Below, one piece after another: positions 18,347-58,879 of a stretch of DNA of 64,000 bases; the stretch's first letter is position 1; every line of letters begins with the position of its first letter. The notes beneath the pieces were generated by a model. It searched no databases and was not told where the DNA came from. It saw only the letters and a list, made by a program, of their open reading frames with translations. The stretch spans positions 320,001 to 384,000 of the forward strand of contig CAWFJJ010000028.1 in assembly GCA_963816185.1 (NCBI GenBank), given 5' to 3'. Source of the DNA: Thermoanaerobaculia bacterium (GTDB taxonomy: Bacteria; Acidobacteriota; Thermoanaerobaculia; UBA5066). The translations under genes were made by a program, and so were the position numbers.

Positions 18347-18357
18347 GAGGAGACACC

Positions 18358-40993: not shown

Positions 40994-41787
40994 TTGACGA
41001 ACGTCGAGATCCTCGGGCGGAATCTCGAATACCGCTGGATCGGACCGCCGCCCGGCGACGCGCCGTCGATCGTGTTCCTGCACGAGGGCCTCGGCTGCGC
41101 CGCGATGTGGCGGGACTTCCCCGACCGCGTGGCGTCCGCGGCTGGCTGCGGCGCTCTCGTCTACAGCCGGACGGGCTACGGCGGCTCCGACCCGGTGCTC
41201 GCGCCGCGGCCCGTTCGCTACATTCACGACGAGGCGCTCGAGGTGCTCCCGGCCGTCCTGGAGCATTTCAAGCTCGAGAAGGCCGTTCTTTTCGGTCACA
41301 GCGACGGCGCGTCGATCGCACTCATCCATGCCGGCGCCCGTTCAAGCTCCGTCCGCGCGCTGATCCTCGAGGCTCCGCACGTCGTCGTGGAACGGTCAGC
41401 CTCGAGGGCATCACGCGGATCACAGCGGATTACGAGACGACGAACCTGAGAGAGCGGCTTGCTCGGCATCACGGCCGCAACACCGACTCGATGTTTCGGG
41501 CGTGGTCCGACGTGTGGCTCAGACCCGAGTTCCGGCAGTGGAGCATTGAAGAGTATCTGCCGTCGATCGAGTGCCCCGTCCTCGTCGTGCAAGGCGAGGA
41601 CGACCAGTACGGCACCCGAAAGCAGGTGGACGCCGTCGTGACGAAGGTCAGGGGTCCGGCCGAATCGCTGATCCTTCCGCGTTGCGGCCACTCTCCGCAC
41701 TCGGAGCGGCCGGACGAAGTCCTCGACGCGGCTCTCCGGTTCATCCGAAACACGCTCGATCCGCGGCGCGACGCGCCGCCTGCTTAG
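40994..41787 (+). CDS. Alpha/beta hydrolase (frameshift near 41395)
   Basis: FLHEGLG, GHSDGAS, QGEDDQYGT, CGHSPH. Confidence 0.82.
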
Positions 41788-43816: not shown

Positions 43817-43927
43817 GTCGCTCCTCGAAAACGGATTAGGCGAAGTCTATCCCGCGGGCCTGGCGCGAGCGGCTAGACTCGTCGGGCGTGATCAGAGATC
43901 GGAGTCGCGCTGATCCGGAGCCATTTC

Positions 43928-45775
43928 GTGTCTCTCTCTAAGGAGGAGATCCTCGAGGATTTCGAGAAGCTGGTTCGGGAGGGCATCCTCCTTGGCGCCG
44001 ACCGCGACCCCGCGATCAGGGACGGAGCCGAGTTCGACCGAGGGCTCGTCAAGAAGAAGGGGAAGGGAAGCCGATTTCTCATCCGGAAGGTCCCCCGGAG
44101 ATCGATTCTCCTGAGGCGCTGGGCACGTCTCTTCGAGAACGCGATCTCGCCGTGCGCCCTGCTCGACGCGCTCTCCGCCAGGATCCACGAGTTCGAGCAC
44201 CGGGAGAAGCTTCTTCTCTTCAGCAGGGACCGGATCATCTATGACGCGGAGATCTTTCACGGGGAGGAGGGCGTCGGCGAGCTCACCCTCAGTTTCGCGT
44301 CGCTCCGGGATCCGTCTCTGGGATTGCGCGGTTATTTCTCGAGCGAGAGGCTGCGGGTCGTCTACATCGAGCACATCCGCCTGACGGCTCAGAAGTCCGG
44401 ATACGCCTCGGCACTCTTCCGTCATTACGAGCGGCTCTTTCACGACCTCGGATTCAACCAGTTCCGGCTCAGTGCCGCCCTCTCCGTCGGCCGGTACTAC
44501 TGGGCGCAGGAAGGGTTCGATTTCTCGGAAGGGTCGGAGGTTGGCACGAGGAAGGCGGAGCTCAGGGCCCTCGTGAAGGAGAGGGGCCTTCCCGTCCGGG
44601 AGGTGGAGATCGGACGTCTGAACCACGCCTACGATTTCGCCCGCTTCAGAAGAGAGCTCAGGATTCCCGTCTATCGGGATGCGGAGGGATTTTATTCGTC
44701 GAAGGGCGACGCCCGCTTTCGCGAGGAAGTCTCCCTGCCGCTTGGAAAGGCGTTTCTTCTCTCCTCGGCGCCCTGGGAGGGATACAAGACGATTTACACG
44801 AACACCCCGCGGAGAACGGGTTTCGTCACGTCGAGGGAGTATCTCTCGCATCGAACGCGCGCCGGGCACGTCGAGAGCCCCGGGCGACTTCGCGTGCTCA
44901 GGAAGGCGATCGACAAGGAAGGCCTGAGAAGGAGCCTCGTGACCCTGTCGCCGTACGTCCCCGACCTCGAATTCCTCGAGGGAATTCACCGGGCCGAGTA
45001 CCTGGCCAGATTTCGCGAAAGCGTCCGGAGCGGCAAGAAGGTGTTCGCCACGGCTGACTGCTCGATTTCCGCGGCAAGCTTCGACGTCGCGCTTCTGGCG
45101 GCCGGCGGCGTAATGGCGGGTGTGGATGCGGTCCTGAACGGGAGGGTCGACAATGTCTTCTGTGCCGTCAGGCCGCCCGGACACCACGCGGGACGGAATT
45201 CCGCGATGGGATTCTGCTTCATCAACAACGTCGCAGTGGGAGCGGTCTACGCGCGGGCGGTCTACGGCGTGGAGAAGATCTTCATCCTCGACTGGGACGT
45301 CCATCACGGCAACGGGACGCAGGAGATCTTCGAGGGAGACCCTCTGACGTATTACTGCAGCCTCCACGAGCACCCCACGTTCTGCTTTCCGGGCACGGGC
45401 CGGAGGATGGAGCGCGGGACGGGCGTAGGCGCCGGGTTCACCCTGAACCTGCCGCTGAAGCCGCACACGAAGGACCAGGAGCTGATGGAGATCTTCGAGC
45501 GAGAAGTCGTCCCGGAGATCGAGCGCTTCGAACCCGGCCTCATCATGGTCTCCGCGGGCTTCGACGCGCACGAAAGCGACCCCATCGCCGACCTCGATCT
45601 CACGGAGAAGTCCTTTGCTTACATGACGCGCAGGGTCTGCGAGCTGGCGGATCGACACTGCGGGGGCAGGATCGTGTCCGTCCTGGAAGGAGGGTACGGT
45701 CCCGCCCTGGCCTCGTCGACACTCGTCCACTTGAAGATTCTTCAGGGAAGGAGTCCGGAATGTTCGTCGGAATAA
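43928..45775 (+). CDS. Zn-dependent deacetylase (HDAC family) with N-terminal GNAT-like domain
   Basis: HDAC motifs RPPGHHA, GFCFINN, DWDVHHGNGTQ, SAGFDAH, LEGGY. N-terminal QKSGYASALF..GRYYWAQEGF. Confidence 0.82.
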   Translation: MSLSKEEILEDFEKLVREGILLGADRDPAIRDGAEFDRGLVKKKGKGSRFLIRKVPRRSILLRRWARLFENAISPCALLDALSARIHEFEHREKLLLFSRDRIIYDAEIFHGEEGVGELTLSFASLRDPSLGLRGYFSSERLRVVYIEHIRLTAQKSGYASALFRHYERLFHDLGFNQFRLSAALSVGRYYWAQEGFDFSEGSEVGTRKAELRALVKERGLPVREVEIGRLNHAYDFARFRRELRIPVYRDAEGFYSSKGDARFREEVSLPLGKAFLLSSAPWEGYKTIYTNTPRRTGFVTSREYLSHRTRAGHVESPGRLRVLRKAIDKEGLRRSLVTLSPYVPDLEFLEGIHRAEYLARFRESVRSGKKVFATADCSISAASFDVALLAAGGVMAGVDAVLNGRVDNVFCAVRPPGHHAGRNSAMGFCFINNVAVGAVYARAVYGVEKIFILDWDVHHGNGTQEIFEGDPLTYYCSLHEHPTFCFPGTGRRMERGTGVGAGFTLNLPLKPHTKDQELMEIFEREVVPEIERFEPGLIMVSAGFDAHESDPIADLDLTEKSFAYMTRRVCELADRHCGGRIVSVLEGGYGPALASSTLVHLKILQGRSPECSSE

Positions 45776-46416
45776 GGATGACACGGAACGTCTTCACGGT
45801 CTCCCCGGGAGACACCTTGAAGTTCGCGAGCAACGTCCTGCACGAGAACCGGATCCATCAGCTTCCCGTCGTCGAACGCGGGGAGCTGGTCGGCTTCGTG
45901 TCGGGTACCGACATACGCAATTCGACGTTCGAGACGTCGACCGTTACGCAGCTCGGCAAGATCCTCGTGAAGAACAAGACCGTCCAGGAGATCATGACGC
46001 GCGAGGTGATCACGGTCAGCCCGGGGGACACGGTCGAAGACGCGCTTCTGATCTTCCACAAGAAAAGGCTGGGCGCCCTGCCCGTCGTGGACGGGAAGAA
46101 GCTCGTCGGAATCATCACGAAAGCCGACGTTCTGGCGGCTTTCTGCGACACCCTCAGGATCGAAGAGCCCGGCGTGAGAATCGAGGTGCTCCTCCCGCGC
46201 GACCCCGGTTCGCTCATTCATCTCGTGCGGCGCCTCGGGGAGCTGAGAACCGAGATCCGAAGCCTGATCTTGTCCCCCTTGCGGGAGGGCTTCGTGGCTT
46301 TCATCCGGCTCTCGACGATCGACGTGGCTCCCGTGAAGAAGTCTCTCAAAGACGCCGGCTTCACCGTGCCCGAGCTTTCGGATTTCTTGGCTGGAACCGT
46401 GCGCGACGAATCATGA
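45760..46416 (+). CDS. acuB: CBS-pair + ACT protein (AcuB-like) 1
   Basis: IHQLPVVE, IMTREVITV, LGALPVVD, C-terminal ACT-like domain. Confidence 0.75.
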   Translation: MFVGIRMTRNVFTVSPGDTLKFASNVLHENRIHQLPVVERGELVGFVSGTDIRNSTFETSTVTQLGKILVKNKTVQEIMTREVITVSPGDTVEDALLIFHKKRLGALPVVDGKKLVGIITKADVLAAFCDTLRIEEPGVRIEVLLPRDPGSLIHLVRRLGELRTEIRSLILSPLREGFVAFIRLSTIDVAPVKKSLKDAGFTVPELSDFLAGTVRDES

Positions 46417-46432
46417 GGACTCGAGGTGTGCC

Positions 46433-47062
46433 ATGTTGATTCGAGACATCATGCGGAGCCCGGCCGTTGCCATCTCCGCCGATACGACGCTCCAGGACGC
46501 CTACCAGACCATGCGCGACAGGGAAATCCGGCACCTGCCGGTTCTCGAGGGCGAAAAGCTCGTCGGAGTCGTCACGGATCGTGACCTGAGGCTGGCGACC
46601 AGCGCGCTCGCGCCATCACCGTTCCCGCCAGGCAGCCGCGTCTGCGAGGTGATGACGCTGGAACCGCTGACGGCGGACGCCTCGGACCCGGTCGAGGACG
46701 CGGCGCGCGCGATGCGCGAGCGGAAGATCGGCTGCCTGCCGGTCCTGGACGACGGGCGTTTGATCGGCATCGTCACGGGCCTCGATCTGCTGGACGCCTT
46801 GATGCGCTTGACGGGCGTGCACAAGCCCTCGGGCCGCCTGGAAGTGCGGCTCGCCGACCATCCGGGCGAGCTCGCGCGGCTCACGGGCTTCGTCAGCCAC
46901 CGTGACCTGAACATTCACTCGATCCTGACGTATCCCGAAGGCTCCGACTCGGTTCGGACCGTCCTGCGCATCGGCTCGATCGAAACCGGGCTGCTCGCAC
47001 AAGACCTGCGCCGTGCCGGTTTCGAGGTGCTGTGGCCCCCGGAGAAGCCGTGCCCGCGGTGA
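46433..47062 (+). CDS. acuB: CBS-pair + ACT protein (AcuB-like) 2
   Basis: IRHLPVL, VTDRDLR, KIGCLPV, LTGVHKPSGRLEV..DHPGEL, GFEVLWP. Confidence 0.82.
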   Translation: MLIRDIMRSPAVAISADTTLQDAYQTMRDREIRHLPVLEGEKLVGVVTDRDLRLATSALAPSPFPPGSRVCEVMTLEPLTADASDPVEDAARAMRERKIGCLPVLDDGRLIGIVTGLDLLDALMRLTGVHKPSGRLEVRLADHPGELARLTGFVSHRDLNIHSILTYPEGSDSVRTVLRIGSIETGLLAQDLRRAGFEVLWPPEKPCPR

Positions 47063-48189
47063 TCTACTCACCGGCCTACGGGAGATACTCCTTCGGCGAC
47101 GAGCATCCCTTCAGCCCCGCCCGCACCGACATGTTGCTCGACCTCGTCCGTGCGCTCGGGCACCCCGTGGAAACGGTCGAACCGAAGCCGGCGACACGGG
47201 AGGAGCTCCTCGACGTGCACGCGGACGCGTATGTCCGCCGCGTGGAGAAGCTGAGCGTGGGCGAGCTCGTTCCGGACGGACCGGAGTATGGGCTCGGAAC
47301 GCAGGACACGCCTTCGTTCCCCGGCATGGACGAGGCGGCGCGGTTGCTCGTCGGCGGAACTTTGCTTGGGGCGCGGCTGATCTCGGAAGGGAAAGAGAAA
47401 CGCGTCCTCCAGCTCGGCGGGGGGCTGCATCACGCGCGCCCCGGCGTCGCGTCGGGTTTCTGCATCTACAACGACCTCGCGATCGCGATCAACTTCCTCA
47501 CCCGGAACGGACTGAAAGTGGGCTATCTCGACATCGACGTCCACCACGCCGACGGTGTTCAGCAAATCCTCGACGAAGACCCGCGCGTCTTGACGGTGAG
47601 CCTTCACGAGTCGGGGAAGTACCTCTTCCCGGGGAGCGGCGAGATTCGTGAGCTCGGCTCGGGTGCCGGCCGCGGCCTGAAGCTCAATCTGCCGCTGGAG
47701 CCATTCACCGAAGGCGAGAGCTACCTGGAAGTTTTCGAGAGGGTGATCCCGGCGGCGCTGCGGCACTTTCGCCCCGACGTCCTCGTCGTCCAGGCGGGCG
47801 CGGACGCGCATTTCGACGACCCGCTCGCCGACCTCATGCTGACGACGCGCGATTACGAAGCCATCTTCAAGCGGATTCTGGAGTTGGCGGACGAATTCAC
47901 CACGGGCCGGGTGCTTTTCACGCTCGGAGGCGGCTACTCGTTCCGCGCCGTGCCGCGCGTGTGGGCGATCCTCTACCTCCTGATTCACGGTCTCCCCGTG
48001 GCGCGGGACCTTCCGGAGTCGTGGCGGAGCAAATGGAGCCGCGCTTCGGAAAGCGAGCTCCCGCTCACCTTCCACGATCCGAATCCGTCGCATGCCGACA
48101 TTCCGAACCGCTACGAGATCGCGCACCGCAACCGGCAAGTGGCCGAGCGGCTGTTGGACCTGACGCGGCAATACTGGTTCCCGAGGTAA
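47050..48189 (+). CDS. acuC: Acetoin utilization protein AcuC (protein lysine deacetylase)
   Basis: FGDEHPFSP, YGLGTQDTPSF, GGLHHA, SGFCIYND, DIDVHHADG, LHESGKYLFPG, GADAHFDDPL, GGGY. Confidence 0.9.
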   Translation: MPAVIYSPAYGRYSFGDEHPFSPARTDMLLDLVRALGHPVETVEPKPATREELLDVHADAYVRRVEKLSVGELVPDGPEYGLGTQDTPSFPGMDEAARLLVGGTLLGARLISEGKEKRVLQLGGGLHHARPGVASGFCIYNDLAIAINFLTRNGLKVGYLDIDVHHADGVQQILDEDPRVLTVSLHESGKYLFPGSGEIRELGSGAGRGLKLNLPLEPFTEGESYLEVFERVIPAALRHFRPDVLVVQAGADAHFDDPLADLMLTTRDYEAIFKRILELADEFTTGRVLFTLGGGYSFRAVPRVWAILYLLIHGLPVARDLPESWRSKWSRASESELPLTFHDPNPSHADIPNRYEIAHRNRQVAERLLDLTRQYWFPR

Positions 48190-48226: not shown

Positions 48227-49420
48227 TTACTTCGGCGCGATCATCTTTCCGGCGGCCTTCGCAGGAGGGTAGAGAAGGACGTGTCGTCCGTTCTGGATCT
48301 GGAAGATGCCGACTTGGTAATGCTGCGGGTTCCCGTGCTCGTCGAATTGCAGCCGCTCCAGCGGGAGCAGCAGGTCGGTTTCGCGTAGGGCGTCGCGGAC
48401 GGCATCCCGCTCCGGAACTGCGGACGCGCGGGACGCCTTCTCGAACGCCGCCAACACCGCCCGCGCCGCGGTGTATCCGTACATGCTGAGCGGCGCCGGC
48501 GGATGCTTGAACTCCCTCGTGAATCCCGCCTCGTAAGAGCGGCTGCCCGCGAGATCTCCGGAGAGCGACATCCCGGGCTCCCAGACGATCGCGCCGATTG
48601 CGCCCTCCGCGACGGGGCCGAGCTGCGCGACGAGCGCCGGGAACTCCATTCCGAAGGCGCCCACGACTGCGAACCCGGAGCTCGTCTGGCCGGAGACCTG
48701 CCGGAGAAGAACGAGGTTGTCCGCGAAAAACCCGTCCATGAGGAGGAGCCGCGCGCCGCTTGCCTTCACGCGGGCAAGGAGAGGGATGAAATCCGGCGTC
48801 CCTGTCTGGAAGCTCTCGAACGTGGAGACTCTGACCCCGTTCGCCTCGAGCCGTTCTTTCTGGAGCCGGGCGAGCTGCGTCGCGCCCGGCGTCGCCGAAT
48901 GGAGGATTGCAACGTCTTTCGCGGGCAGGAGCTCGAGAGGAACGGCCGTCGTGGCGTCCACGAACGGCTCGAGTCGGCTGATCCTGAAGAACCAGGCGTT
49001 TCCGCGCTGCGTCAGCCGCTGATCGAGCGAGGAGCTCGCCACGTAAGGGACGCGTTCTCGCTCGGCCACCTGGGCCACCGGGCCGACGATGCTGTCGACG
49101 TATCCGCCCACGAGCGCGCTGACTCGTTTGTGCGTGGTCAGCTCCTGGGCTGCGGTCGTCGCTTCGTCCGGTCTCCCGCTGTCGTCCCGCGTGATCAGGG
49201 TGACCGGGCGTCCGCGGACCCCGCCGGCGGCGTTCGCCTCCGAGACGGCGTAGACGACGCCTTCGTGCACGGCCGCTCCCTGGGCCGCCATGACGCCGCT
49301 GAGGGACTCGACCTCGCCGATTCGCAGGTCCACGGCGCTCTTCGGGTCGCGGGAGCACCGCGCGGCGTAAAGCCCCAACGCCAGCAGCGGGCCGAATGCG
49401 GCGAACCGTGGAACCTTCAC
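48227..49420 (-). CDS. Branched-chain ABC transporter substrate-binding protein (LivJ/K family)
   Basis: Signal peptide with Cys, LRIG...SLSG, NAAGGVRGRPVTLITRDD, WFFR, LQFDEHG. Confidence 0.85.
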   Translation of the reverse strand: MKVPRFAAFGPLLALGLYAARCSRDPKSAVDLRIGEVESLSGVMAAQGAAVHEGVVYAVSEANAAGGVRGRPVTLITRDDSGRPDEATTAAQELTTHKRVSALVGGYVDSIVGPVAQVAERERVPYVASSSLDQRLTQRGNAWFFRISRLEPFVDATTAVPLELLPAKDVAILHSATPGATQLARLQKERLEANGVRVSTFESFQTGTPDFIPLLARVKASGARLLLMDGFFADNLVLLRQVSGQTSSGFAVVGAFGMEFPALVAQLGPVAEGAIGAIVWEPGMSLSGDLAGSRSYEAGFTREFKHPPAPLSMYGYTAARAVLAAFEKASRASAVPERDAVRDALRETDLLLPLERLQFDEHGNPQHYQVGIFQIQNGRHVLLYPPAKAAGKMIAPK

Positions 49421-49445
49421 GCGGTGACCGGTTCCGTGCCGAGGG

Positions 49446-50414
49446 TCAGAAGGCGGGCAGAGGCTGCCGCGCTTCCATCAAGAGCTGCCTGGTCCCGTCG
49501 GACCGGGCCGTGTCGCGCTCCATCTGGATGGAAGCGAGGCGAGAACGCCATGGGGTGAGGTCGAACGTTTCGTCCTTCGGCGAGGCGAGGCAGGCGTCGA
49601 TCAGGTCCCGGTAGAAGCGGACCATGCGCTCGACGAGAGGCACGGGGTATTCGCGCCCTTGTACTTTCAGGCACGCGACATCGAGATCGATCAGGTGCGG
49701 GATGTCTTCCAGAAGAAAGAATGCATCGTTCTTCAGCGCCACGCTGCTTTCCCACTTCTCGTCGCCGGAATAGAGGTCCCAGGACTCCAGGCAGACGCGG
49801 TAATCGAGACCGCCGCGGTTCGGACTTCCCTTGAACAGGTCCTTCCCGAAGGCGTCCGTCGTGCGCTCGAGACGGTGATAGGGAGACATCCAGCATTTCC
49901 CGAGGTACGTGTAGCACTTGTTCGCGTGGATCAGGATCTCGATCCCGACGTCGATGCGCTCTTTCCGGGAGGCCAGCTCCCTGAGGGTCAGCTTCGTGTC
50001 GGCGACCACCTGCGAGACGCCGATCGACCGGTAGAACCTCACGTCCTCGTCGTTGAGGATATTGGCCCCGATCGAGGCGTGGATCGTGAGATGCGGAAAT
50101 CTCCGGTGGACCTCGGCGATCGCACCGATGTCGGTCATGATCGCCCCGTCCACTCCCCAGGATACGAATCGCTCCATCTTTGCCAGCATGGGGGCGATCT
50201 CGTGAGACTGCATGTTCGTGTTGAAGGCCACGCGCAGCTTGGCGCCGCCCGCGTGGGCGATTTCGATCGCGGTGCGGACGTCCTCGTCGGACATCTCGTA
50301 TTTGTCGCGCCTCCGGCTCCAGCCGCGAGGACCGACGTAGATGGCGTTCGCACCGTTCGCGGCCGCCCCTCGGACCATCGGAAGATTCCCTGCCGGCGCC
50401 AGAAGTTCGACCAT
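49446..50414 (-). CDS. Peptidase U32-family Fe-S protein (UbiU/TrhP-like; third Cys replaced by Asp)
   Basis: ELLAPAGNL, NAIYVG, HASIGA, HANKCYTYLGKCWMS, NRGGLDYRVC, LKVQGR. Confidence 0.88.
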   Translation of the reverse strand: MVELLAPAGNLPMVRGAAANGANAIYVGPRGWSRRRDKYEMSDEDVRTAIEIAHAGGAKLRVAFNTNMQSHEIAPMLAKMERFVSWGVDGAIMTDIGAIAEVHRRFPHLTIHASIGANILNDEDVRFYRSIGVSQVVADTKLTLRELASRKERIDVGIEILIHANKCYTYLGKCWMSPYHRLERTTDAFGKDLFKGSPNRGGLDYRVCLESWDLYSGDEKWESSVALKNDAFFLLEDIPHLIDLDVACLKVQGREYPVPLVERMVRFYRDLIDACLASPKDETFDLTPWRSRLASIQMERDTARSDGTRQLLMEARQPLPAF

Positions 50415-50434
50415 GATCTTCCTCCTCGAGCTGC

Positions 50435-51388
50435 CTATGATTCCGCGCGCGAGATCGTCGGAAGGGACCCGAGCGCTTCCGGCCGAAGCCCCTGGTACTC
50501 CATTCCGCTCTTGCCGAAGTAGAAGCCGTTGCAGAGACCGACGTGCGCGTGACGCCGAAGCGTTTCCCACCACGTCTCGTTTACGTCGCCGTCGCCTGCG
50601 ATCGCCCCTTCCAGAGCCGCGCGATACACGGCCGCGACCTCACGCCGGTAATCGGGAGTCTCCGAGACGGTTTCGATCCGGAAGTGCCGGTGGCCCCCGG
50701 CGATCAGACGCGGCAGATGGTCGAGCATGCACACGTCCTTGCCGCTCAGAATTCCCTTTCCCAGCGACTTCATCGCCCAGTCTCCCTGCTTCAGGAACAG
50801 CTCTTTCTGGCAGAGGTCGGGGCACTTAATTCCCCACTTCTCCTCGTAATCCAGCAGGAAGCAATAATCCGAGACGCCTAGCGGCATCTTGCCGTGGACG
50901 AGAAGCTCCAGGGGCGCGGAACAGGCTGCCGTGATCTCGTGGATCTCGTCCAGGCTCAGCTCGTAATTCGGTGTGAACCTCACGGCCCCGAAGCCGCGGA
51001 GGACCTCGGCGCCAGCCGCGGTGTAGACGTTCGCGAAGCCCCCGACGTGGACGGGGAGCTCCGGAAACTCCTCGTGTGCGATCCTCAGGATCCCGAGGTT
51101 GTGGACCTCGACCGCTTCGGCGCCCGCTGCCGCCGACGCTTCCAGCATCTTTCTCACCTTCGGCAGGAAATCGTTCCGCGGCGCCGCGTACGTCGCCGCA
51201 TAGGCCTTCTTTCCCTGGTCGCGAAGGATGTGGAGCCCTTCCTTGAGGTCTCCGAGCTGCTCCAGGAAGTTCGATTCGTAGAGCCGGCAGTAGATGTCGC
51301 CGAGGTAAACCGCGTCGTAGCCGGTCAGGTTCGAGGCTCGGAGGTCTCGCAGGTTCGCGATCGTCGTGTTCAGCTCGAAGCCGGTCAT
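50435..51388 (-). CDS. Peptidase U32-family Fe-S protein (UbiV-like Cys pattern)
   Basis: AVYLGDIYCRLY, NVYT, ELSLDEI, HGKMPLGVSDYC, KCPDLC, CNGFYFGKSG. Confidence 0.85.
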   Translation of the reverse strand: MTGFELNTTIANLRDLRASNLTGYDAVYLGDIYCRLYESNFLEQLGDLKEGLHILRDQGKKAYAATYAAPRNDFLPKVRKMLEASAAAGAEAVEVHNLGILRIAHEEFPELPVHVGGFANVYTAAGAEVLRGFGAVRFTPNYELSLDEIHEITAACSAPLELLVHGKMPLGVSDYCFLLDYEEKWGIKCPDLCQKELFLKQGDWAMKSLGKGILSGKDVCMLDHLPRLIAGGHRHFRIETVSETPDYRREVAAVYRAALEGAIAGDGDVNETWWETLRRHAHVGLCNGFYFGKSGMEYQGLRPEALGSLPTISRAES

Positions 51389-51438
51389 GAGCGGTCAGTC
51401 TCCCGTCGCATTTCGCGCCTCGCCATTCGTCCTCTCCC

Positions 51439-52389
51439 TCATCGTCCGACGACGGCCCACGCCGTCGGCAAGGAGGCCGGTGGCGGCTCGAACGGGTCCG
51501 TCATCGCCCGAGCGTCGAGCGCCTTACGGTAGCGGCGCACGAGCGGCGCCAGCAGCTCCACCGGAAGGCTTCGGCCTTGCAGCTTCAGGACATCGGCTCC
51601 CGCCTCGGCATAGGCGCCGACATCCGCGATCCGGCTGATCTGCCGGCTCGGAAAAAGGCGCGTGTCGACATGACGACCGGCGGCGAAGAGCTCCCACGGT
51701 TGCTGGCAGATTCTGAAGCAGGCCCCGACGCCCCCTCGCTTCACGCTGCCGGTCTGCCGCAAACCCTGATGAGCACCCTCCGGCGCCTCGCCCGCGAAGT
51801 CCCTCGACGAGCCTGCGGCCCGGAAGGGCGACGGCTTCAAATGCACGTAGCTCGGCATCCAGCATTTTCCGAGCAGGACGAACTCCTCGACCATGTGGAC
51901 CATGATCTCCACGGAGATTCCCCCGACCGTTCTGATCTCGCGCACCTCGGCGGGGCTCACCGTCCCCGGCAGGACGACGGCGTGGGCGCCCAGGTCCCGG
52001 AAGAGAGCGACGTCGGCGACGGTCTGGGCGCCGCAGCCGATGCTGGCGGTCAGCCGCAACCTCTCGAAGCGTCGCTTGAGGTCCGCGAGGATTCCGACGT
52101 CGTTCACGATGACATCCCGAATCCCGAGCTCCAGGAGGGCGGCGACATGCTCGAAGAGTCGTGCACGTTCCGCGGGCTTCGGAATCGTGTTGAGGGCGAC
52201 CTGGAGACCCCGGCCGGCCGAGGTCACCTCGTCCCACGCGGCCTCGAGCTCGTCCCAGCGCAGCTCTCTCCGCGCCCCGCCGCGGCTCCAGCCCTCGAGG
52301 CCCACATACACGGCGTCTGCCCCCGCGCCGAGAGCGGCCCGGACGGCCTCGAGACTTCCGGCCGGCACGAGGAGGAGAGGCACTGCCAT
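51439..52389 (-). CDS. Peptidase U32-family Fe-S protein (UbiU/TrhP-like; first Cys replaced by Glu)
   Basis: LLVPAGSLEAV..GADAVYVG, ASIGCG, HMVEEFVLLGKCWM, GACFRICQQPW, LKLQGR. Confidence 0.85.
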   Translation of the reverse strand: MAVPLLLVPAGSLEAVRAALGAGADAVYVGLEGWSRGGARRELRWDELEAAWDEVTSAGRGLQVALNTIPKPAERARLFEHVAALLELGIRDVIVNDVGILADLKRRFERLRLTASIGCGAQTVADVALFRDLGAHAVVLPGTVSPAEVREIRTVGGISVEIMVHMVEEFVLLGKCWMPSYVHLKPSPFRAAGSSRDFAGEAPEGAHQGLRQTGSVKRGGVGACFRICQQPWELFAAGRHVDTRLFPSRQISRIADVGAYAEAGADVLKLQGRSLPVELLAPLVRRYRKALDARAMTDPFEPPPASLPTAWAVVGR

Positions 52390-52510
52390 CACCCCGGCCA
52401 AAATACTACGTGCCGTCGACTATTCATCGCGTCGAGTGATTTTAGGCTGCGATTCCGGCCGCGAGTCAAGATGTTTCTCTCGATTCGCTCGTACCCTGTA
52501 ATCTCCGGCG

Positions 52511-53035
52511 ATGGCAGCGCGCCACGGTCTCACGGAAACGTACCGCACGATGGCGAATCTGCGGCGGTTTTTCGAGTCGGTCCGGAGGACGATCACGGCC
52601 GAGCCGACGACCGGGGGCCTCACGCCCGCCCAGCAGTTCGCCCTCCTGACGCTCGCGGGCAGCCCGTCGGACGCCCCCCTGACGATCGGCGACCTGGCGC
52701 GCGAGACGTTTGCCACGATGAACACGACCTCCGCCCTCGTGAGGAGGATGGAGCGCACCGGCCTCGTCCGCACGACGCGCTCCCCGAGGGATCGCCGCTT
52801 CGTCTACGTCAAGCTGACGGCATCCGGCGAACGCCGCCTTCGTCCATCCACGGCCGCCGTTGCAAAGGCCCTGCGCGCTGCGGCCGACGAGCAGGGAAGA
52901 GCCCAGCTCCGCACCGCGTTCGAGACGTGGTTCGACAACTGGGGCGCCGTCATCAAGGCGCTGTCGTCCTCTCCCCGCAGGCGTGGGCGCCGAACGCGCC
53001 GGCAAGTCGCCGGGAGATGGCGGGCTCGCCCTTAA
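52511..53035 (+). CDS. MarR family transcriptional regulator
   Basis: GLTPAQQFAL, TIGDLA, LVRRMERTGLV, DRRFVYVKLTASG; divergent from the U32 genes. Confidence 0.85.
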   Translation: MAARHGLTETYRTMANLRRFFESVRRTITAEPTTGGLTPAQQFALLTLAGSPSDAPLTIGDLARETFATMNTTSALVRRMERTGLVRTTRSPRDRRFVYVKLTASGERRLRPSTAAVAKALRAAADEQGRAQLRTAFETWFDNWGAVIKALSSSPRRRGRRTRRQVAGRWRARP

Positions 53036-53040
53036 GGCTC

Positions 53041-53346
53041 CTACTTCCTCTTGTCGCTCACCTGGGTCAGCAGCGAGTCGCTGACGTGCGTGACGAGGCC
53101 GTGGAAGACGACCTTGACCTTGCGGAAGCCCGGGTCGGTGAGGATCTTCTCGAGCGCCGCGAGGCTCTCGAGGTCGACCTGGACGAGCCGCTGCGGGGAG
53201 GATCCGCCCAGCATGCTCTTGTAGGTGCGGACGGCCTTGACGCCTTTGAACTTCAACCAGATGTTCTTGCCGGGGCCCTTGGTGTACCTCTCGTACTCCC
53301 TGAGCTTCCCGGGCAGGACGTCGAACCTGTACTCGAACGTGACCAT
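53041..53346 (-). CDS. Hypothetical small protein, possible dimeric alpha+beta barrel (NIPSNAP/EthD-like)
   Basis: AAGGAGG SD; YRFDVLPGKLREY..GVKAVRTY..VDLESLAALEKIL. Confidence 0.6.
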   Translation of the reverse strand: MVTFEYRFDVLPGKLREYERYTKGPGKNIWLKFKGVKAVRTYKSMLGGSSPQRLVQVDLESLAALEKILTDPGFRKVKVVFHGLVTHVSDSLLTQVSDKRK

Positions 53347-53365
53347 GGAACTGCCTCCTTGATTC

Positions 53366-54142
53366 CTATCTTCCCGTCCAGACGGCCGCTCTCTTGCCGA
53401 GGAACGCCGAGATCCCTTCCTGTGCATCGGACGTCATGGAGCTCATCGACATGATCTCCTTGGTGTACGCGTACGCTTTCGGCTGATCGAGGTCGATCTG
53501 CGAGTAGAAAGCCTGTTTCCCGATGGCGAGCGTGACGGGGCTCGCCTCCGCAATGTGCGCCGCGAGCTTGCGAGTCTCCTCACGGAGCGCGCCTGAAGGC
53601 ACGACGCCGTTGACGAGCCCCCAGTCAGCGGCCGTCGTCGCGTCGATCGGGTCCCCGGTCAAAAGCATCCGGAGGGCGCGCTTGCGACCGACCGCACGGG
53701 TCAACGCGACCATCGGAGTCGCGCAGAAGAGGCCGATCTTGACTCCCGGCGTGGCGAACCAGGCCTCCTCGGCGGCGACCGCGAGGTCACAGGTCGCCAC
53801 GAGCTGGCATCCCGCCGCGGTGGCGACGCCCTGAACCTCGGCGATGACGGGCTGCGGAATCGACTGGATCTTCATCATCAGCTCGGCACAGACGTCGAAG
53901 ATCTGGCGGTAATCGTTGATGTTCCTCCCGACCAGCTCGCTGAGATCGTGTCCCGAGCTGAAGACCTTCCCGGCCGCGGCGAGAATGACGGCGCGGAGCT
54001 GCCGGTCCTCTCCGATGCGTCCGAGGCAGTCCAGCAGCTCCCGCATGAGCGCCAGCGAAAGGGCGTTGCGCCTCGCGGGTCGGTTCAGCGTCACGACCGC
54101 GACGGCCCCATCCGTCTCGAAGCAAAGGCTTTCGTATCCCAT
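53366..54142 (-). CDS. Enoyl-CoA hydratase/isomerase (crotonase, ECHDC3-like)
   Basis: TLNRPARRNALS, FSSGHDL, ATAAGCQLVATCDL, TPGVKIGLFC, DAQEGISAFLGKR. Confidence 0.88.
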   Translation of the reverse strand: MGYESLCFETDGAVAVVTLNRPARRNALSLALMRELLDCLGRIGEDRQLRAVILAAAGKVFSSGHDLSELVGRNINDYRQIFDVCAELMMKIQSIPQPVIAEVQGVATAAGCQLVATCDLAVAAEEAWFATPGVKIGLFCATPMVALTRAVGRKRALRMLLTGDPIDATTAADWGLVNGVVPSGALREETRKLAAHIAEASPVTLAIGKQAFYSQIDLDQPKAYAYTKEIMSMSSMTSDAQEGISAFLGKRAAVWTGR

Positions 54143-54170
54143 CTGAAGTCTCCTTTGCCGGCCGCTCTCT

Positions 54171-54503
54171 CTAGTGCCCGCAATATTGCGGGAAGTACTC
54201 GTCGTCCCCGATGAACTCGGGGAACTGGACGCGCACTTCGCCCAGGGGATGGAAGTCGGCGTCGAACTCCAGGGCGACCACACGCTGGTCCTGGCCGTCG
54301 TAGTACCGGAAGACATAGCGCCCGTCAGGCAGAGCCAGAGCATCGATCGCGCGGCTGTCGTCGAAGTTGAGAGCCATGCTTACCAGCAGGTCGGGGACCG
54401 AATAGACGACGCCCTTGATCGTCAGGGTCTGTTCGCCGCTCCCGAGGGGGCCGTAGCGGCTCTCCATCAGCGCCGGGCCTTTCAACCCAGCCACGGCGCT
54501 CAC
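54171..54503 (-). CDS. Hypothetical acidic protein, paralog of 18014..18346
   Basis: RYGPLGSG..IKGVVY..IDA..GR..RYYDG..VVALE..EVRV..EFIGD; overlaps the upstream stop. Confidence 0.75.
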   Translation of the reverse strand: MSAVAGLKGPALMESRYGPLGSGEQTLTIKGVVYSVPDLLVSMALNFDDSRAIDALALPDGRYVFRYYDGQDQRVVALEFDADFHPLGEVRVQFPEFIGDDEYFPQYCGH

Positions 54504-54718
54504 GCTTCCTTCGGAGCCGCCGCGGGCCGCTTGAAGATCAGGTGCAGACCGATCGTCCCGTAGGCCACGCCATCTTTGTTCGGAGCGATGAGCGGGGCAG
54601 CCGAGACGAGCTCCCAGCCTTCGGAGCCGGCGCCGTTAATCCAGGTGTCCAGGCCGCTCACCATGCCACCTTCTCCGTCGCTGAAGATGACCATTCGATC
54701 GAAGTACTCCCACTGCAT
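54500..54718 (-). CDS. DUF4177-like small protein
   Basis: MQWEY..INGAGSEGWELVS..LIFKRP. Confidence 0.7.
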   Translation of the reverse strand: MQWEYFDRMVIFSDGEGGMVSGLDTWINGAGSEGWELVSAAPLIAPNKDGVAYGTIGLHLIFKRPAAAPKEA

Positions 54719-54776
54719 GATCGCTCCCGTTACGCACCTCAGCCTAGCACAGGGCCACGGGAGAACCGGCGTCTCG

Positions 54777-55514
54777 TCAGGCTTTTGCGAGGTGGTCGCC
54801 GAGCCAGGCGCTGAGGGTCTCGCAGGCCGAGCGGTTGAACCGCAGCTCGCTGTGGTTGAACCAGCGCGGGAGGTAACGGATCAGGCCGCTCTCGTGCTGG
54901 ACGTCGGGGCGGATATTCTCGGAGACGAGGCGCTTTTCGGAGGCGGGGAGCTCGGCCTGCAGGCCCGCGGCGCCGTCGAGAAGCGCCTGGATGTCGCGCT
55001 CCGAGTAGAGGAGGAGACAGGGGCGGCCATGCGACGGGACGGGGCCGAGCTTTTCGAGGAGCTCGAGGACGTATCCCGAGTAAGGCTCGCGGAGCCCGGG
55101 GCTCGGGAGGTTCTCGAACATCCATTTGCCCTGCGGGGACATTTGCATCATGACGGACGGCGACATCGCCACCATGACGTCCGCCGACGACATGAGCGCG
55201 AGCCTCCCCCCGAGGCTGTGGCCGATCACCGCCGTCTTGCCGAAACGCCGGACGAACGCGACGGCGGCCTCGAGCTCATCGCGCATCGCCGGGCCGATCG
55301 GCGCCATGTTCTCGCCGTGCCCGCAGAGGTCGACCGCGAGAACGGCGATCCCTTTCTCGGCCACGGCCGTGGCGATCCCGAGCATCTGCTCCTTCGACGA
55401 GCCGTAGCCGGGGCACGCCACGGCACCGCCGCGCGGCGAGGCCGGGACGAAAAGAAAGCCGGGGATGACATGGCCGTCCGGCGCCCTCAAGTCGTTCACC
55501 CTCCGAAATTCCAT
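54777..55514 (-). CDS. Alpha/beta hydrolase
   Basis: CPGYGSSKE, VDLCGHGE, GHSLGG. Confidence 0.75.
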   Translation of the reverse strand: MEFRRVNDLRAPDGHVIPGFLFVPASPRGGAVACPGYGSSKEQMLGIATAVAEKGIAVLAVDLCGHGENMAPIGPAMRDELEAAVAFVRRFGKTAVIGHSLGGRLALMSSADVMVAMSPSVMMQMSPQGKWMFENLPSPGLREPYSGYVLELLEKLGPVPSHGRPCLLLYSERDIQALLDGAAGLQAELPASEKRLVSENIRPDVQHESGLIRYLPRWFNHSELRFNRSACETLSAWLGDHLAKA

Positions 55515-55515: not shown

Positions 55516-55962
55516 TCACTGCTCCTTCGCCTTGGCCTCGAGGGCCGCGAGGCGCACGTTGAGCTCTTTTTGCTTCTGCCAGCGGGCCGTCACGTCCTGG
55601 ACGATCGCGGCCACGCCGGCAAGCTCGCCGCTGCCTCCGCGGACGAGGACGACGTTGAACTCGATGGAGATCCGCGAGCCGTCTTTCCGCACGGCCGGAA
55701 CCGCAAGCGGGTCGCGCCCATATTTCGTGACCCCGCTCGCCATGACTTTCTCCCAGCCTTCCCAGTGTCTCTGCCTCTGGCGCTCGGGCACGATCAGGTC
55801 CAGCGACTGTCCGAGCGCCTCTTTTTCCGTGTAGCCGAACACGGTCTCGGCTCCGGAGTTCCAGAGGCGAATCTTCCCCTCGCGGTCGGCGAAGAGGATC
55901 GCCATCGGGCTGTTCTCGACGATTCTCCGGCAAAGCCAGCCGTGGTCAGGGGACTCGGTCAT
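55516..55962 (-). CDS. Stand-alone PAS domain protein
   Basis: AILFADREGKIRLWNSGAETVFGY..ALGQSLDLIVPE, RKDGSRISIEF, coiled-coil tail. Confidence 0.82.
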   Translation of the reverse strand: MTESPDHGWLCRRIVENSPMAILFADREGKIRLWNSGAETVFGYTEKEALGQSLDLIVPERQRQRHWEGWEKVMASGVTKYGRDPLAVPAVRKDGSRISIEFNVVLVRGGSGELAGVAAIVQDVTARWQKQKELNVRLAALEAKAKEQ

Positions 55963-58783
55963 GTGATTCTCCTTCGACGGTCACGCTCGCGACCTGGGCG
56001 GAAGGGTCTGCGGCGCGCGGGCGTGCCGGCGCCGTCGTCGTGTAACGGGCGGCCCGTTCCTTGTGAGGACGCGCCACGCGAATGCGCGCATCGAGGATGC
56101 GGCAGCCGTCGCCGGGAGACCCGACGAAGATCGGGCTGAGCTCGAGCTCCGCGATGTCCGGCGCTTCCTCGACCAGACGGGAGACGCGCAGCAGGACGTC
56201 CTGGATCGCCTCGATGTCGGCGGGCGGGTACCCGCGATAACCCGTGAGCAGGGGATAGCCGCGGGCTTCCCGCACCATGGCGGCGGCGGCGCGGTCTGTC
56301 AGGGGAGTCACGCGCACGGCACGATCCGCGATCGCCTCTACATGAATTCCGCCGAGACCGAACGCGATGAGAGGACCGAAGGAAGGGTCCTCGAACATTC
56401 CGACCGTCACCTCGACGTCTCCCTTGAACATCGGCAGGACGAGCACGCCTTCCTTCGCCTCGAACGTGCCGTCCGCCGTCAGGGAATCGCGAATCACGTC
56501 GAAGGCTCTCCGGGCCGCGACCTCGTCGGGGACGTTCAGATGGACCGCCCTCTTCTCGGTCTTGTGAAAGACCTGGGGGCTGGCCGACTTGACCGCGACC
56601 GGGAACCCTACGCTCCGGGCCATCTTGGCGGTCTCGTCGGCGGTGCGGGCGACCCCACCCGCAGCGACGGGAAGGCGCATGGCTCGAAGGACTGCCCTTG
56701 CTTCCTCCGCCGTGAGCCAACCCGCCCCGCGCTCTTCGATCGCCCGCCGGCACGTTCCGCGCGCGGACGCCGGCTCGATGTCGTCGAAGTCGGGAACGAT
56801 CCCGTGCGGGCCTGCTCGCCACACGGCGTACGTCGCGATCTTGCCGAGCACGCGCGCAGCAGATTCCGGGTACGCATACGTGGGAATGCTCTCGCCGCCG
56901 AGCGCAATCGGCCCGCTGGCATCTTCCTTCGCCACGAGGCAGACCAGAACCGGCTTGCCGGCTCCGCCCGCAGCGCGCGCGCCCGCCGTGCCCCGCCGGA
57001 TCGCCTCCAGCATCGCGGCCGATCCTTCCTCGTCGAGCGGGGTTTGGATCGCGATCACGGAATCCACGTCGCGATCGACGAGGAGCGACTCGAGCGCCTG
57101 AGAGTACTGATCCGCCGAGGCCGAAGCGCCAAGCACGAGCGGATTGCCGATCGCCGCACCGGGCGAGAGAAAGGCCTCGAGCCGCCTTGCCGTCGAGTCG
57201 GAAAAGGGACTGACGGAAAGCCGGGCCGCCTCGCAGGCGCCCTCGCAGAGGATGCCGGGGCCGATTCGGTCCGAGAGGATCGCCACGCGGCGCCCCAGAG
57301 GCAAAGGCTGCCGGTCAAGCGCGGAAGCGAGATCGAACATCTCGTCCAGCGTCTCGGCGCGGATGACTCCAGTCTGGCGGAAGAGCGCATCCACTGCGGC
57401 GTCGTCCGCGACGAGAGCCGCCTCGCCGGATCCGGTCTCCACGCTCGCCGCCCGGCGCCCCGGTTTCACGACCACGATCGGCTTCTCTCGGCTCACGCCC
57501 CGGGCGATTCGCGCGAACCGCCGTGGATTCCCGAACGACTGGAGGTAAAGGAGGATGACGCGCGTCGCTTCGTCGCCTTCCCAGTACTGGAGGAGGTCGT
57601 TGCCGGAGATGTCGGCCTTGTTTCCCACGTTGATGAAAGTCGAGATGCCCACGTGTCGCTGCCGCGCGAGGGACAGCATGGCGAGACCCAGCGCGCCGCT
57701 CTGGGACAGCATCGCGACGCTTCCGCTCGGCGGGAGAATCGGGGATGCCGAAGCGTTGAGCCGGATCGCCGGATCGGCGTTCAGGAGGCCCATGGAGTTG
57801 GGCCCGACCAGGCGCATCCCGTGGCCTCGAGCTTTCTCGAGGAGTTTCTCCTGCAGGGAACGCCCCTCGGCCCCCGCCTCGGCGAATCCCGCGGTGACGA
57901 CGACGAGCGCCCGGACGCCGGCCGCGGCGCAGTCGTCCACCGCATCCAGCACCGCGTCGCGCGGCGCGACCATGATGGCGAGATCCGTCCCTTGCGGGAT
58001 CTCGCGTGCGGAGGGAAAGGCCGGCCATGGCGCGATGGAGGGCAAAGTCGGGCTGGCCGCGTAGACAGGGCCCTGGAAACCTCCCTTGGACAGCGCCTCG
58101 AGGATGCGCAATCCGATGCTCGAGGTCTCGCGGGACGCGCCGACGACCGCGATGGACCGCGGCCGGAAGAAGGGACGAAGCGAGGCGGTCGTGAAGACGC
58201 GGTCCCTCATTTCCGAACGGCTGACGCTGTCCTCGCTCGGAGCGACCGTGAAGTCGATCTCGACGGATTCATCCTCGATCCTGGAGTGGATCGGAAATCC
58301 CGACTGCCGAAACGTCTCCAGCATGAGCTGGTTCCCCAGCAACGTCAGAGCCCAGAAGCGAACGAAGCCGTGCCGCGCCGCAAGGAGGGCCAGCCGCTCG
58401 AGGAGAAGACCTCCGAGGCCCTTCCCTTGAAACTCGTCATCCACCGCGAAGGCGACCTCGGCGCTCGCCTCGTCGCGCGCGACGTAGGAGCCGGTCGCGA
58501 TGATCCGGGACGTGCCCTCCACGACCCGGCTCACGATCAGCGTGAGCTGCACCCGAGGGTTGGACGAATCGCACTGCCGCTTGAGCAGCGACTCTGCCGG
58601 ATCGGCGGCCGAGAAGAAGCGGCGCCGCTTCGACTCGGGCGAGAGCTGATGGAAGAACTCGCGCAGCGCGTCGAGGTCTCCCGGCTCCGAAAGGCGGATG
58701 AACGCGGTGGAGCCGTCGCGCAGAATGAGACGGCCGGATTCCGCGGAGTCCTGATAGGTCGGCGGCAGGAAAAGGGTTCGCAT
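55946..58783 (-). CDS. pat: Protein lysine acetyltransferase Pat (N-terminal GNAT + NDP-forming acyl-CoA synthetase-like domains)
   Basis: LRDGS..IR, LSPESKRRRFF, AEVAFAVDDEFQGKGLG, PRSIAVVGAS, VGPNSMG, SQSGALG, ATP-grasp; lacks the SHT phospho-His. Confidence 0.85.
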   Translation of the reverse strand: MRTLFLPPTYQDSAESGRLILRDGSTAFIRLSEPGDLDALREFFHQLSPESKRRRFFSAADPAESLLKRQCDSSNPRVQLTLIVSRVVEGTSRIIATGSYVARDEASAEVAFAVDDEFQGKGLGGLLLERLALLAARHGFVRFWALTLLGNQLMLETFRQSGFPIHSRIEDESVEIDFTVAPSEDSVSRSEMRDRVFTTASLRPFFRPRSIAVVGASRETSSIGLRILEALSKGGFQGPVYAASPTLPSIAPWPAFPSAREIPQGTDLAIMVAPRDAVLDAVDDCAAAGVRALVVVTAGFAEAGAEGRSLQEKLLEKARGHGMRLVGPNSMGLLNADPAIRLNASASPILPPSGSVAMLSQSGALGLAMLSLARQRHVGISTFINVGNKADISGNDLLQYWEGDEATRVILLYLQSFGNPRRFARIARGVSREKPIVVVKPGRRAASVETGSGEAALVADDAAVDALFRQTGVIRAETLDEMFDLASALDRQPLPLGRRVAILSDRIGPGILCEGACEAARLSVSPFSDSTARRLEAFLSPGAAIGNPLVLGASASADQYSQALESLLVDRDVDSVIAIQTPLDEEGSAAMLEAIRRGTAGARAAGGAGKPVLVCLVAKEDASGPIALGGESIPTYAYPESAARVLGKIATYAVWRAGPHGIVPDFDDIEPASARGTCRRAIEERGAGWLTAEEARAVLRAMRLPVAAGGVARTADETAKMARSVGFPVAVKSASPQVFHKTEKRAVHLNVPDEVAARRAFDVIRDSLTADGTFEAKEGVLVLPMFKGDVEVTVGMFEDPSFGPLIAFGLGGIHVEAIADRAVRVTPLTDRAAAAMVREARGYPLLTGYRGYPPADIEAIQDVLLRVSRLVEEAPDIAELELSPIFVGSPGDGCRILDARIRVARPHKERAARYTTTAPARPRAADPSAQVASVTVEGESHDRVP

Positions 58784-58879
58784 GAAAGCGGACGTCGTGC
58801 CTACCCGCCCGGGGCGTCAGCGTGACCGGTCATCTTAGCACCGCATCGGCGGCGGCGGGGGTCCGCTATCATCCTGCGC

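Follow-up and report, generated by a model that had tools for sequence, protein, structure and literature searches.

Three tandem U32 genes conserved in Acidobacteriota and Methylomirabilota: a candidate UbiUV-like enzyme for coenzyme A-activated acids

What might three consecutive genes of the U32 family do in a bacterium in which no ubiquinone pathway was found? The genes lie in a stretch of 64,000 nucleotides (nt), hereafter the window (positions 320,001 to 384,000 of contig CAWFJJ010000028.1, forward strand, assembly GCA_963816185.1). It comes from a Thermoanaerobaculia bacterium of the phylum Acidobacteriota, represented by a metagenome-assembled genome (MAG) of 5.09 Mb that is 94.9% complete. 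U32 "oxidases" characterised so far all serve either to make ubiquinone or to modify RNA (PMC11574389). Of the twelve subfamilies most have not been characterised, and an in vitro assay is still lacking (PMC10990095). A literature search, which did not cover subscription journals or supplements, returned no description of such a three-gene U32 module. The initial annotation of this locus proposed a new O2-independent hydroxylase, and every sequence observation in it holds on re-analysis. Our reading is that the trio encodes an inducible, heteromeric, UbiUV-like iron-sulfur (Fe-S) enzyme that oxidises, and probably hydroxylates, a coenzyme A (CoA)-activated, probably aromatic acid. We hold this tentatively, at a probability of roughly 45%.

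The three genes (U32_1, U32_2 and U32_3; Table 1) are all intact, with 70–99 invariant columns each among 22 orthologues. Frameshifted copies of the trio (L049, L072) are limited to single assemblies. All three products exceed the gathering score of PF01136 (Peptidase_U32), which is 22.4 bits. A Pfam scan of the three proteins found this domain and no other, neither Peptidase_U32_C (PF16325) nor a DUF3656 extension. Since PF01136 is their sole Pfam domain, the proteins have no RNA-associated C-terminal extension, just as the initial annotation had stated. No signal peptide was recognised in any of the three sequences. A sequence search of the PDB with U32_1 and U32_3 gave no relative at E <= 0.01, and a homologue in the Atlas carries the label "U32/UbiU-like" and nothing more. 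The most likely start codon of U32_1 is the ATG at 52389, because the resulting length of 316 amino acids (aa) equals that of database protein P0001 and because conserved non-coding sequence extends to 52403. Residues of U32_1 are numbered here from the TTG at 52401.

Which of the known U32 proteins do they resemble? One clue is the pattern of cysteines (Cys) that would hold an Fe-S cluster. Published motifs are CX6CX16CX38C for UbiU, CXnCX12CX3C for UbiV and CX6CX15CX3/4C for most other U32 families (10.1101/587956). The trio was aligned with UbiU, UbiV, TrhP and RlhA of Escherichia coli (from NC_000913). U32_2 has the four-Cys pattern of UbiV that had been claimed for it. C34 (in GDIYC) is combined with C176-x12-C189-x3-C193, the first canonical position is occupied by a proline as in UbiV, and the four Cys are present in 37/37 evaluable loci. 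U32_1 reads E173-x6-C180 ... C228-x3-C232, and U32_3 reads C167-x6-C174 ... D204-x3-C208 with an extra C248 before KVQGR. The codons for E173 and D204 are GAG and GAT, each at least two changes from TGY, and the earlier argument that these are not single-base errors stands. The replacement of KIEGR, found in the E. coli proteins, by K[LV]QGR in both U32_1 and U32_3 was also seen again. A glutamate is essential in TrhP (E162) and RlhA (E161), as is the second Cys of CX6C (PMC6599085). This glutamate corresponds to the E165 column, which is invariant in all three trio proteins and the four E. coli proteins, and the second Cys of CX6C (C180 in U32_1 numbering) is invariant across the same set.

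Are the substitutions at ligand positions signs of decay? U32_1 is E-C-C-C in 40/40 loci from a search of genome contigs, and C123, E173, C180, C228 and C232 are all kept in 38/38 genomes of other lineages. U32_3 is C-C-D-C in 30 of the 35 orthologues from the same 40-locus set and C-C-C-C in 5, the remaining five rows being paralogue matches or unreadable. In other lineages it is C-C-D-C in 28/33 orthologues (21 with C248 and 7 with T248) and C-C-C-C in the five that are of Rokubacteriales type. Because they are conserved across loci and lineages, the Glu and Asp are, judged from sequence, selected features and not decay. Conservation had been named at the outset as a point to check; it is complete for the Glu, and the Asp is retained in most copies, those of Rokubacteriales type having Cys. 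Among 53 aligned rows of short U32 proteins (representatives at 50% identity plus references, with two UbiV-type rows excluded), 36 have a residue other than Cys at the first ligand position, mostly E or D. A non-Cys first ligand is, on this alignment, a family trait of the short-U32 clade and not unique to the trio.

C123 is a fourth invariant Cys of U32_1 that the initial annotation did not mention. It could be a relocated fourth ligand, as in UbiV, and is as good a candidate as the carboxylate of E173. Cys counts in the wider family are suggestive only: the C123 position is Cys in 20/39 rows with a non-Cys first ligand versus 2/17 rows with Cys there. A similar role for C248 of U32_3, replacing the third Cys in the manner of UbiU C232, was considered and rejected. 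UbiU C232 aligns elsewhere, and 7 genomes, as well as representative P0157, combine D204 with Thr248.

The phylogeny tentatively points the same way as the motifs for U32_2 and sets the other two proteins apart. It is a quick IQ-TREE analysis of 81 rows, made after P0132, P0162, P0170 and P0215 had been dropped as fragmentary or misaligned. The sample was drawn with U32_1 as query, is biased towards its relatives and took in only 14 of the long RlhA-like representatives. U32_1 and U32_3 fall within a 45-row clade of short U32 proteins (SH-aLRT 99), in which the U32_1 orthologue clade has a support of 100, and E. coli UbiU, TrhP, RlhA and UbiV lie on the opposite side of the tree (support 98). 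U32_2 clusters with E. coli UbiV (SH-aLRT 98), on long branches (2.76 and 1.14). All three proteins score below the cut-offs of the family models. U32_1 and U32_3 reach 87.1 and 121.3 bits with the UbiU equivalogue NF047963 (cut-off 440), U32_2 reaches 78.9 with the UbiV equivalogue NF047965 (cut-off 275), and the trio as a whole reaches 83.9–135.9 with the TrhP equivalogue (cut-off 534). Neither U32_1 nor U32_3 has the CX6CX16CX38C pattern of UbiU, and UbiU C232 has no counterpart in them.

The initial annotation had warned that its idea would fall if the proteins came out inside the true UbiUV or the TrhP/RlhA clades and their genome encoded a complete ubi pathway. What was found is a pair of UbiU-like copies outside the E. 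coli UbiU, TrhP and RlhA branches, in a genome where the searches recovered no ubiquinone pathway. None of the four UbiA-family genes in this 94.9% complete genome qualifies as the ubiA_proteo equivalogue. The genome does encode two proteins of the MqnA/D family, one MqnP-like prenyltransferase and a single UbiD of menaquinone type. From this gene content, menaquinone is predicted to be made by the futalosine route. The methyl-plastoquinone pathway was considered as context and set aside, as it has no bearing on the phyla that carry the trio.

Is the trio one unit? The gene order is kept in 25/25 Thermoanaerobaculia-type loci and in 11/11 other loci that hold all three genes. These 36 complete loci span Thermoanaerobaculia, one Terriglobales MAG and Methylomirabilota, which supports the three-gene module of the initial annotation as a conserved unit. 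Moreover, the trio genes are the sole U32 genes in all five genomes checked (this one and four of other lineages). Because they are the only U32 genes in the genome and their order recurs, the tandem arrangement is more than chance. The trio is present in 9/151 genomes of the class Thermoanaerobaculia, among them 4/10 other genomes of its own genus; 140 of the 151 lack U32 genes altogether. Of 401 genomes sampled from the phylum Acidobacteriota, 3 have the trio. In Methylomirabilota, where the tallies given here and below include the unpublished genomes G548 and G558, 62/251 genomes match the U32_1 profile, 53 of those at orthologue level. U32_2 and U32_3 of the window are 77–83% identical to those of NC10-type loci (L056, L058–L060, L064), and the AMP-ligase discussed below is 57–64% identical. 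The high identity of U32_2 and U32_3 across phyla suggests that the module was transferred between Acidobacteriota and Methylomirabilota. Two contigs with the Thermoanaerobaculia-type arrangement, L036 (MarR beside U32_1) and L063 (trio followed by genes for a binding protein, a deacetylase and CBS proteins), are filed under Solirubrobacterales and Acidithiobacillales MAGs. These placements are probably binning errors.

What would such a unit act on? One clue comes from Methylomirabilales-type genomes, in which the trio lies downstream of a conserved operon on the same strand. In order, the operon encodes IclR, a pair of family III CoA-transferases, three small proteins, the AMP-ligase and, in many cases, another IclR. 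In 22/23 evaluable genomes of this type (21 from fetched loci and the 22nd, G573, from coordinates) the AMP-ligase is encoded at most 10 kb upstream of the trio and in the same direction. IclR immediately precedes U32_1 in 11 genomes, and another IclR heads the ligase operon in 5/5 loci examined. The linkage of ligase and trio is kept in at least three different arrangements. Because variant gene sets (TPR-o450-unk110, or YnfA-FNT channel-P-type ATPase) lie between the two, the linkage appears to have outlived rearrangement. The channel, a member of the formate/nitrite family (FNT), stands between AMP-ligase and trio in one Methylomirabilota subgroup (L107, L109, L117, L088); a P-type cation ATPase accompanies it except in L117, and a YnfA-like protein does so in 2/4 loci.

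The window has its own copy of these genes. At 14581-20447, 29 kb from the trio, there are orthologues of the Methylomirabilales operon at 47–65% identity. Ligase and trio also co-occur across genomes. A ligase orthologue is present in 45/53 trio genomes of Methylomirabilota versus 25/198 others (44/52 without G548), and in 8/9 trio genomes of Thermoanaerobaculia versus 1/142 others. The nearest solved relatives of the ligase are anthranilate-CoA ligase (2.8e-79) and benzoate-CoA ligases. The initial annotation had suspected an imported small molecule or its CoA ester as substrate, and the link to CoA-thioester enzymes and ligand-type regulators now appears independently in Methylomirabilota, with IclR, CoA-transferases and AMP-ligase upstream. 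Regulators of two families, MarR and IclR, flank the trio in two phyla.

Taken together, these observations can be arranged into a pathway. A carboxylic acid, probably aromatic, would be imported and converted to its CoA thioester by the AMP-ligase and the family III CoA-transferases. The trio would then oxidise (hydroxylate) the thioester without O2. The three genes would encode the subunits of a single heteromeric U32 enzyme built like UbiU-UbiV, with U32_2 as the UbiV-type partner and U32_1 and U32_3 as two distinct UbiU-like subunits. With E173 in U32_1 and D204 in U32_3, each cluster would have one iron whose ligand is labile or relocated. Expression would be induced through a ligand-sensing regulator, MarR here and IclR in Methylomirabilales.

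How does this compare with the known systems? UbiU-UbiV is a heterodimer (10.1101/587956). The trio is like it (YhbU/YhbV in E. coli) in consisting of U32-only proteins of about 300–330 aa encoded side by side, and the far-upstream first Cys and CX12CX3C of U32_2 are an exact match to UbiV. UbiUV is also a known heteromer with an aromatic-ring substrate rather than RNA. In contrast to UbiUV, there are three genes and not two, neither a UbiT gene nor a ubiquinone pathway was found, and the trio is linked with genes for CoA-ligase and CoA-transferases as well as for MarR or IclR. U32_1 and U32_3 also differ from UbiU in branch, motif and score (87–121 versus 440 bits). TrhP, RlhA and the TrhP1/TrhP2 pair share with the trio the conserved Glu and the CX6C region, and TrhP1/TrhP2 (YrrO/YrrN of Bacillus subtilis) are likewise paralogues from one operon, both partners of which are required. 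However, these RNA enzymes have a C-terminal PF16325 or DUF3656 domain on at least one partner, whereas the trio has neither, and no xo5U follow-up genes were found in the trio genome. The first Cys, essential in TrhP (C170) and RlhA (C169), is a Glu in U32_1. Molybdenum-dependent anaerobic hydroxylases do the job that is proposed for the trio, O2-independent hydroxylation in inducible, CoA-linked degradation (PMC11574389). Their fold and cofactor are unrelated and water is their oxygen donor, and no genes for molybdenum enzymes were seen beside the trio.

Several observations do not fit the proposed CoA-linked hydroxylase comfortably. The ligase falls below the benzoate-CoA-ligase family cut-off (293 versus 375 bits). 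There are no CoA genes near the trio in 11 Rokubacteriales-type loci and one Terriglobales locus, although the ligase is encoded elsewhere in 7/9 Rokubacteriales- or Terriglobales-type genomes examined. Conversely, 25 genomes have the ligase without the trio, and G072, a congener of a trio bearer, encodes the ligase and the block from unk128 to the alpha/beta hydrolase but not the trio; therefore the ligase pathway does not need the trio. The co-occurrence counts are inflated by kinship of the genomes, and the high identity across phyla points to co-transfer, by which genes may become linked even if they share no function. Finally, the oxygen donor for UbiUV is prephenate (PMC10990095). If prephenate also donates oxygen here, each hydroxylation would consume one prephenate, a cost that argues against bulk catabolism.

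Could the trio act on an acyl-CoA without hydroxylating it? Its clusters might serve as Lewis-acid or redox centres for a dehydration, a reduction or another step. 2-Hydroxyacyl-CoA dehydratases, which act beside family III CoA-transferases, would be a possible analogy. A non-Cys first ligand is the rule in the short-U32 clade, KIEGR is replaced by KxQGR, and the context includes CoA-transferases, an enoyl-CoA hydratase and monocarboxylate transporters (of the major facilitator superfamily, MFS, or of FNT in some Methylomirabilota). Nor has a U32 protein yet been seen directly to hydroxylate in vitro (PMC10990095, PMC11574389). Nevertheless, the U32 functions characterised in the published accounts are all C-hydroxylations of an aromatic or pyrimidine ring, and the conserved Glu and the Cys scaffold are kept in the trio, so we regard a non-hydroxylating enzyme as unlikely. 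Perhaps, instead, the trio does hydroxylate, and the target is an endogenous lipid, quinone or cofactor precursor, in a UbiUV-like bypass to which the CoA genes are mere neighbours. This would account for the UbiV-type subunit, for subunits of about 320 aa without RNA-binding extensions, for the Rokubacteriales-type and Terriglobales loci in which the trio stands alone among unrelated neighbours, and for a patchy, accessory distribution like that of UbiUVT. The quinone genes make such a bypass quite unlikely, with no ubiquinone pathway found, a menaquinone-type UbiD and MqnA/D present. The futalosine route is not known to need a ring hydroxylation. In addition, no SCP2/UbiT-like gene was seen beside the trio, and the tree places the trio apart from E. 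coli UbiU.

RNA is the other established kind of target, and the trio might hydroxylate tRNA at U34 or 23S rRNA at C2501 as TrhP, TrhP1/TrhP2 or RlhA do. In favour of this, the genome has no U32 genes other than these three, there are TrhP1/TrhP2 pairs with one partner reduced to the U32 domain, and RNA has been proposed as the target of uncharacterised U32 subfamilies in published work. We still think it decidedly unlikely. None of the trio proteins has Peptidase_U32_C or DUF3656, the TrhP scores are 84–136 against a cut-off of 534 bits, and the searches of the genome gave no CmoA above the cut-off (best match 28.8 bits versus 193.3) and no match to TrhO (PF17773). Furthermore, 140/151 genomes of the class do without any U32 protein, and ligand-type regulators and a CoA-enzyme operon would be unusual beside RNA-modification genes. 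Isoelectric points were of no help, as they fail to separate RNA-acting from small-molecule U32 proteins. That leaves the family name itself. Collagenolytic activity has been reported for PrtC and HP0169 (PMC5727448), and the trio could be ordinary collagenase-like peptidases, or paralogues of which one is decaying. With intact genes, many invariant columns, frameshifts in single assemblies only, no signal peptide and a conserved Fe-S scaffold, this is scarcely credible.

The initial annotation was right that a MarR gene diverges from the trio, and the arrangement recurs in 26/26 evaluable Thermoanaerobaculia-type loci, with MarR at 101–291 nt upstream of U32_1 in 25 of them. It is confined to that type, as MarR was found in 0/10 evaluable loci of other lineages. 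Between the two genes is a conserved region with a -35-like TTGACT (52469-52464) and a -10-like TAAAAT (52444-52439) separated by 19 nt. A conserved block at 52440-52403 has TCGAC-N10-GTCGAC half-sites, and the GTCGAC palindrome is at 52415-52420. A scan for consensus sigma-70 promoters with spacers of 16–18 nt called no site, the spacer here being 19 nt, and terminators were no more frequent than in shuffled sequence. The region at 52403-52469 is a candidate promoter with a putative MarR operator.

The periplasmic binding protein downstream of the trio is a less constant neighbour. The initial annotation noted it as co-oriented with the trio, and in the window it does follow closely, 25 nt after the U32_3 stop. 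However, it is present in only 13/21 evaluable Thermoanaerobaculia-type loci (one a 58-aa fragment and one 2.6 kb away) and in 0/11 loci of other lineages. It is best seen as a facultative neighbour, possibly co-transcribed with the trio. Its nearest solved relatives are amino-acid binders (7e-22), with aromatic-acid binders at 4e-12, and these relatives do not reveal its ligand. The nearest LivH/M-type ABC permease pair that lacks an adjoining binding-protein gene is at 37392-39060 in the window, and the Peripla_BP_6 gene closest to that pair, 9 kb off, is the one that follows the trio.

Table 1. Trio genes and neighbouring features, with positions in the window
Feature	Position	Strand	Remarks
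MFS transporter, monocarboxylate	13253-14524	+	Passes NCBIfam L-lactate MFS model
Family III CoA-transferase 1	14581-15996	+	Pfam/NCBIfam
Family III CoA-transferase 2	15950-17230	+	Pfam/NCBIfam
s133-like Zn-ribbon protein	17363-17785	+	Distal partner cluster
unk110 paralogue	17963-18346	+	Distal partner cluster
s131-like protein	about 18349-18717	+	Distal partner cluster
AMP-ligase	about 18780-20447	+	Pfam/NCBIfam
LivJ-type periplasmic binding protein	48227-49420	-	Peripla_BP_6 (PF13458), 6.3e-49; starts 25 nt after U32_3 stop
U32_3	49446-50414	-	UbiU-like short U32; PF01136, 3.1e-36, 125.3 bits
U32_2	50435-51388	-	UbiV-type U32; PF01136, 7.1e-38, 130.6 bits
U32_1	51439-52389 (open reading frame to TTG at 52401)	-	UbiU-like short U32; PF01136, 1e-21, 77.7 bits
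Conserved control region (candidate promoter and operator)	52403-52469	-	Columns >= 80% conserved in 19 aligned intergenic regions
MarR-family regulator	52511-53035	+	MarR_2, 2.6e-11; no Cys; divergent from trio
unk128	within 53041-55514, probable start 53346	-	No Pfam/NCBIfam match
Enoyl-CoA hydratase	53366-54133	-	Pfam/NCBIfam
unk110	54171-54503	-	No Pfam/NCBIfam match
Alpha/beta hydrolase	54777-55514	-	Pfam/NCBIfam

Beyond MarR lies a block of four genes, from unk128 to the alpha/beta hydrolase. G072 keeps this block at 87% identity and has no U32 gene, and its homology with the trio-bearing relative stops exactly at the unk128/MarR boundary. Because of this break, the mobile unit on the MarR side would be MarR plus the trio. 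Homologues of unk110 and of the hydrolase occur near the trio in Methylomirabilota (38–56% identity to the window or L090 proteins). The C-terminal domain of unk110 is present in 30/53 Methylomirabilota trio genomes versus 16/198 others. The window itself has two unk110 copies, and in NC10-type loci (L058:5839-6507) the domain is fused behind one of about 95 aa that looks ThiS/MoaD-like by eye. Its neighbours there are genes for TPR, a 450-aa unknown, VWA and a MoxR-type AAA protein, as well as one whose product has a JAMM-like H-x-H-x7-S-x2-D motif. Pfam and NCBIfam gave no family for unk110, unk128, s133, s131 and several neighbours. More widely, the trio is embedded among acyl-CoA/acetylation genes at 41741-48189 and 55516-59740. 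These encode an ADP-forming acyl-CoA synthetase, a 615-aa deacetylase-domain protein, two CBS-pair proteins, an AcuC-like deacetylase, a PAS protein, a 945-aa protein combining GNAT and ADP-forming synthetase domains (Pat-like) and an amidohydrolase. None of the five trio-lacking relatives checked yielded the AcuC-like deacetylase or unk128.

The surroundings of the trio are different again in other lineages. In the NC10-type loci L058 (11119-11382), L056, L059 and L060 the trio is followed by a conserved CxxC ... CxxC protein of 87–89 aa. It has a weak rubredoxin-like/zinc-ribbon match (E 0.0024) and could be an electron carrier. In three of three Rokubacteriales-type loci (L065, L067, L072) a co-oriented Kelch-repeat gene immediately precedes the trio. 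Downstream are FecR, OmpA and CHASE2-SpoIIE genes in all three and an HATPase_c_2 gene (anti-sigma-type kinase) in two.

Another U32 cluster is worth setting beside the trio. L086 (G567:C1:2022000-2040000, cluster at 6866-14590), from a 2.75 Mb Methylomirabilota genome, also has a UbiV-type gene in tandem with several UbiU-like short U32 genes. The first canonical Cys is absent from all of the UbiU-like copies, which have N, P and Q there. However, there are four U32 genes, they are only 29–40% identical to those of the trio, and the partners are different. The order is LuxR-PAS regulator, class I/II aminotransferase, nucleotidyltransferase, UbiV-type U32, two UbiU-like U32 genes (N, P), a cytoplasmic NMT1/THI5-like protein, the fourth U32 and a PPDK_N/PEP-utilising enzyme. 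The fourth U32 combines the Q with a C123-type Cys. Triple U32 matches like those of L086 occur in several other genomes.

Is the trio expressed? A soil metatranscriptome run contains contigs about 90% identical to the window over the binding protein, the three U32 genes and MarR, and one of them bridges the U32_2/U32_3 junction (50335-50782). All the runs consist of contigs, those found here come from relatives, and DNA carry-over is possible; depth differences and gaps in cover are uninterpretable.

If the trio is indeed a CoA-linked hydroxylase, U32 chemistry would reach into the organic-acid metabolism of phyla that abound in soil and sediment and are uncultured, and it would constitute a second enzyme class for hydroxylation without O2, beside the molybdenum enzymes. 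In its fullest form the idea is that this is the first U32 enzyme of small-molecule catabolism, a three-subunit, molybdenum-independent, O2-independent aryl- or acyl-CoA hydroxylase. Its two catalytic subunits would have site-differentiated [4Fe-4S] clusters, with Glu or Asp in place of Cys, that bind the substrate or the oxygen donor directly. Stated with that much detail the idea is doubtful. The substrate would be soluble, which could make possible a first in vitro assay of a U32 hydroxylase and would let the mechanism be dissected, including the role of the non-Cys cluster ligands.

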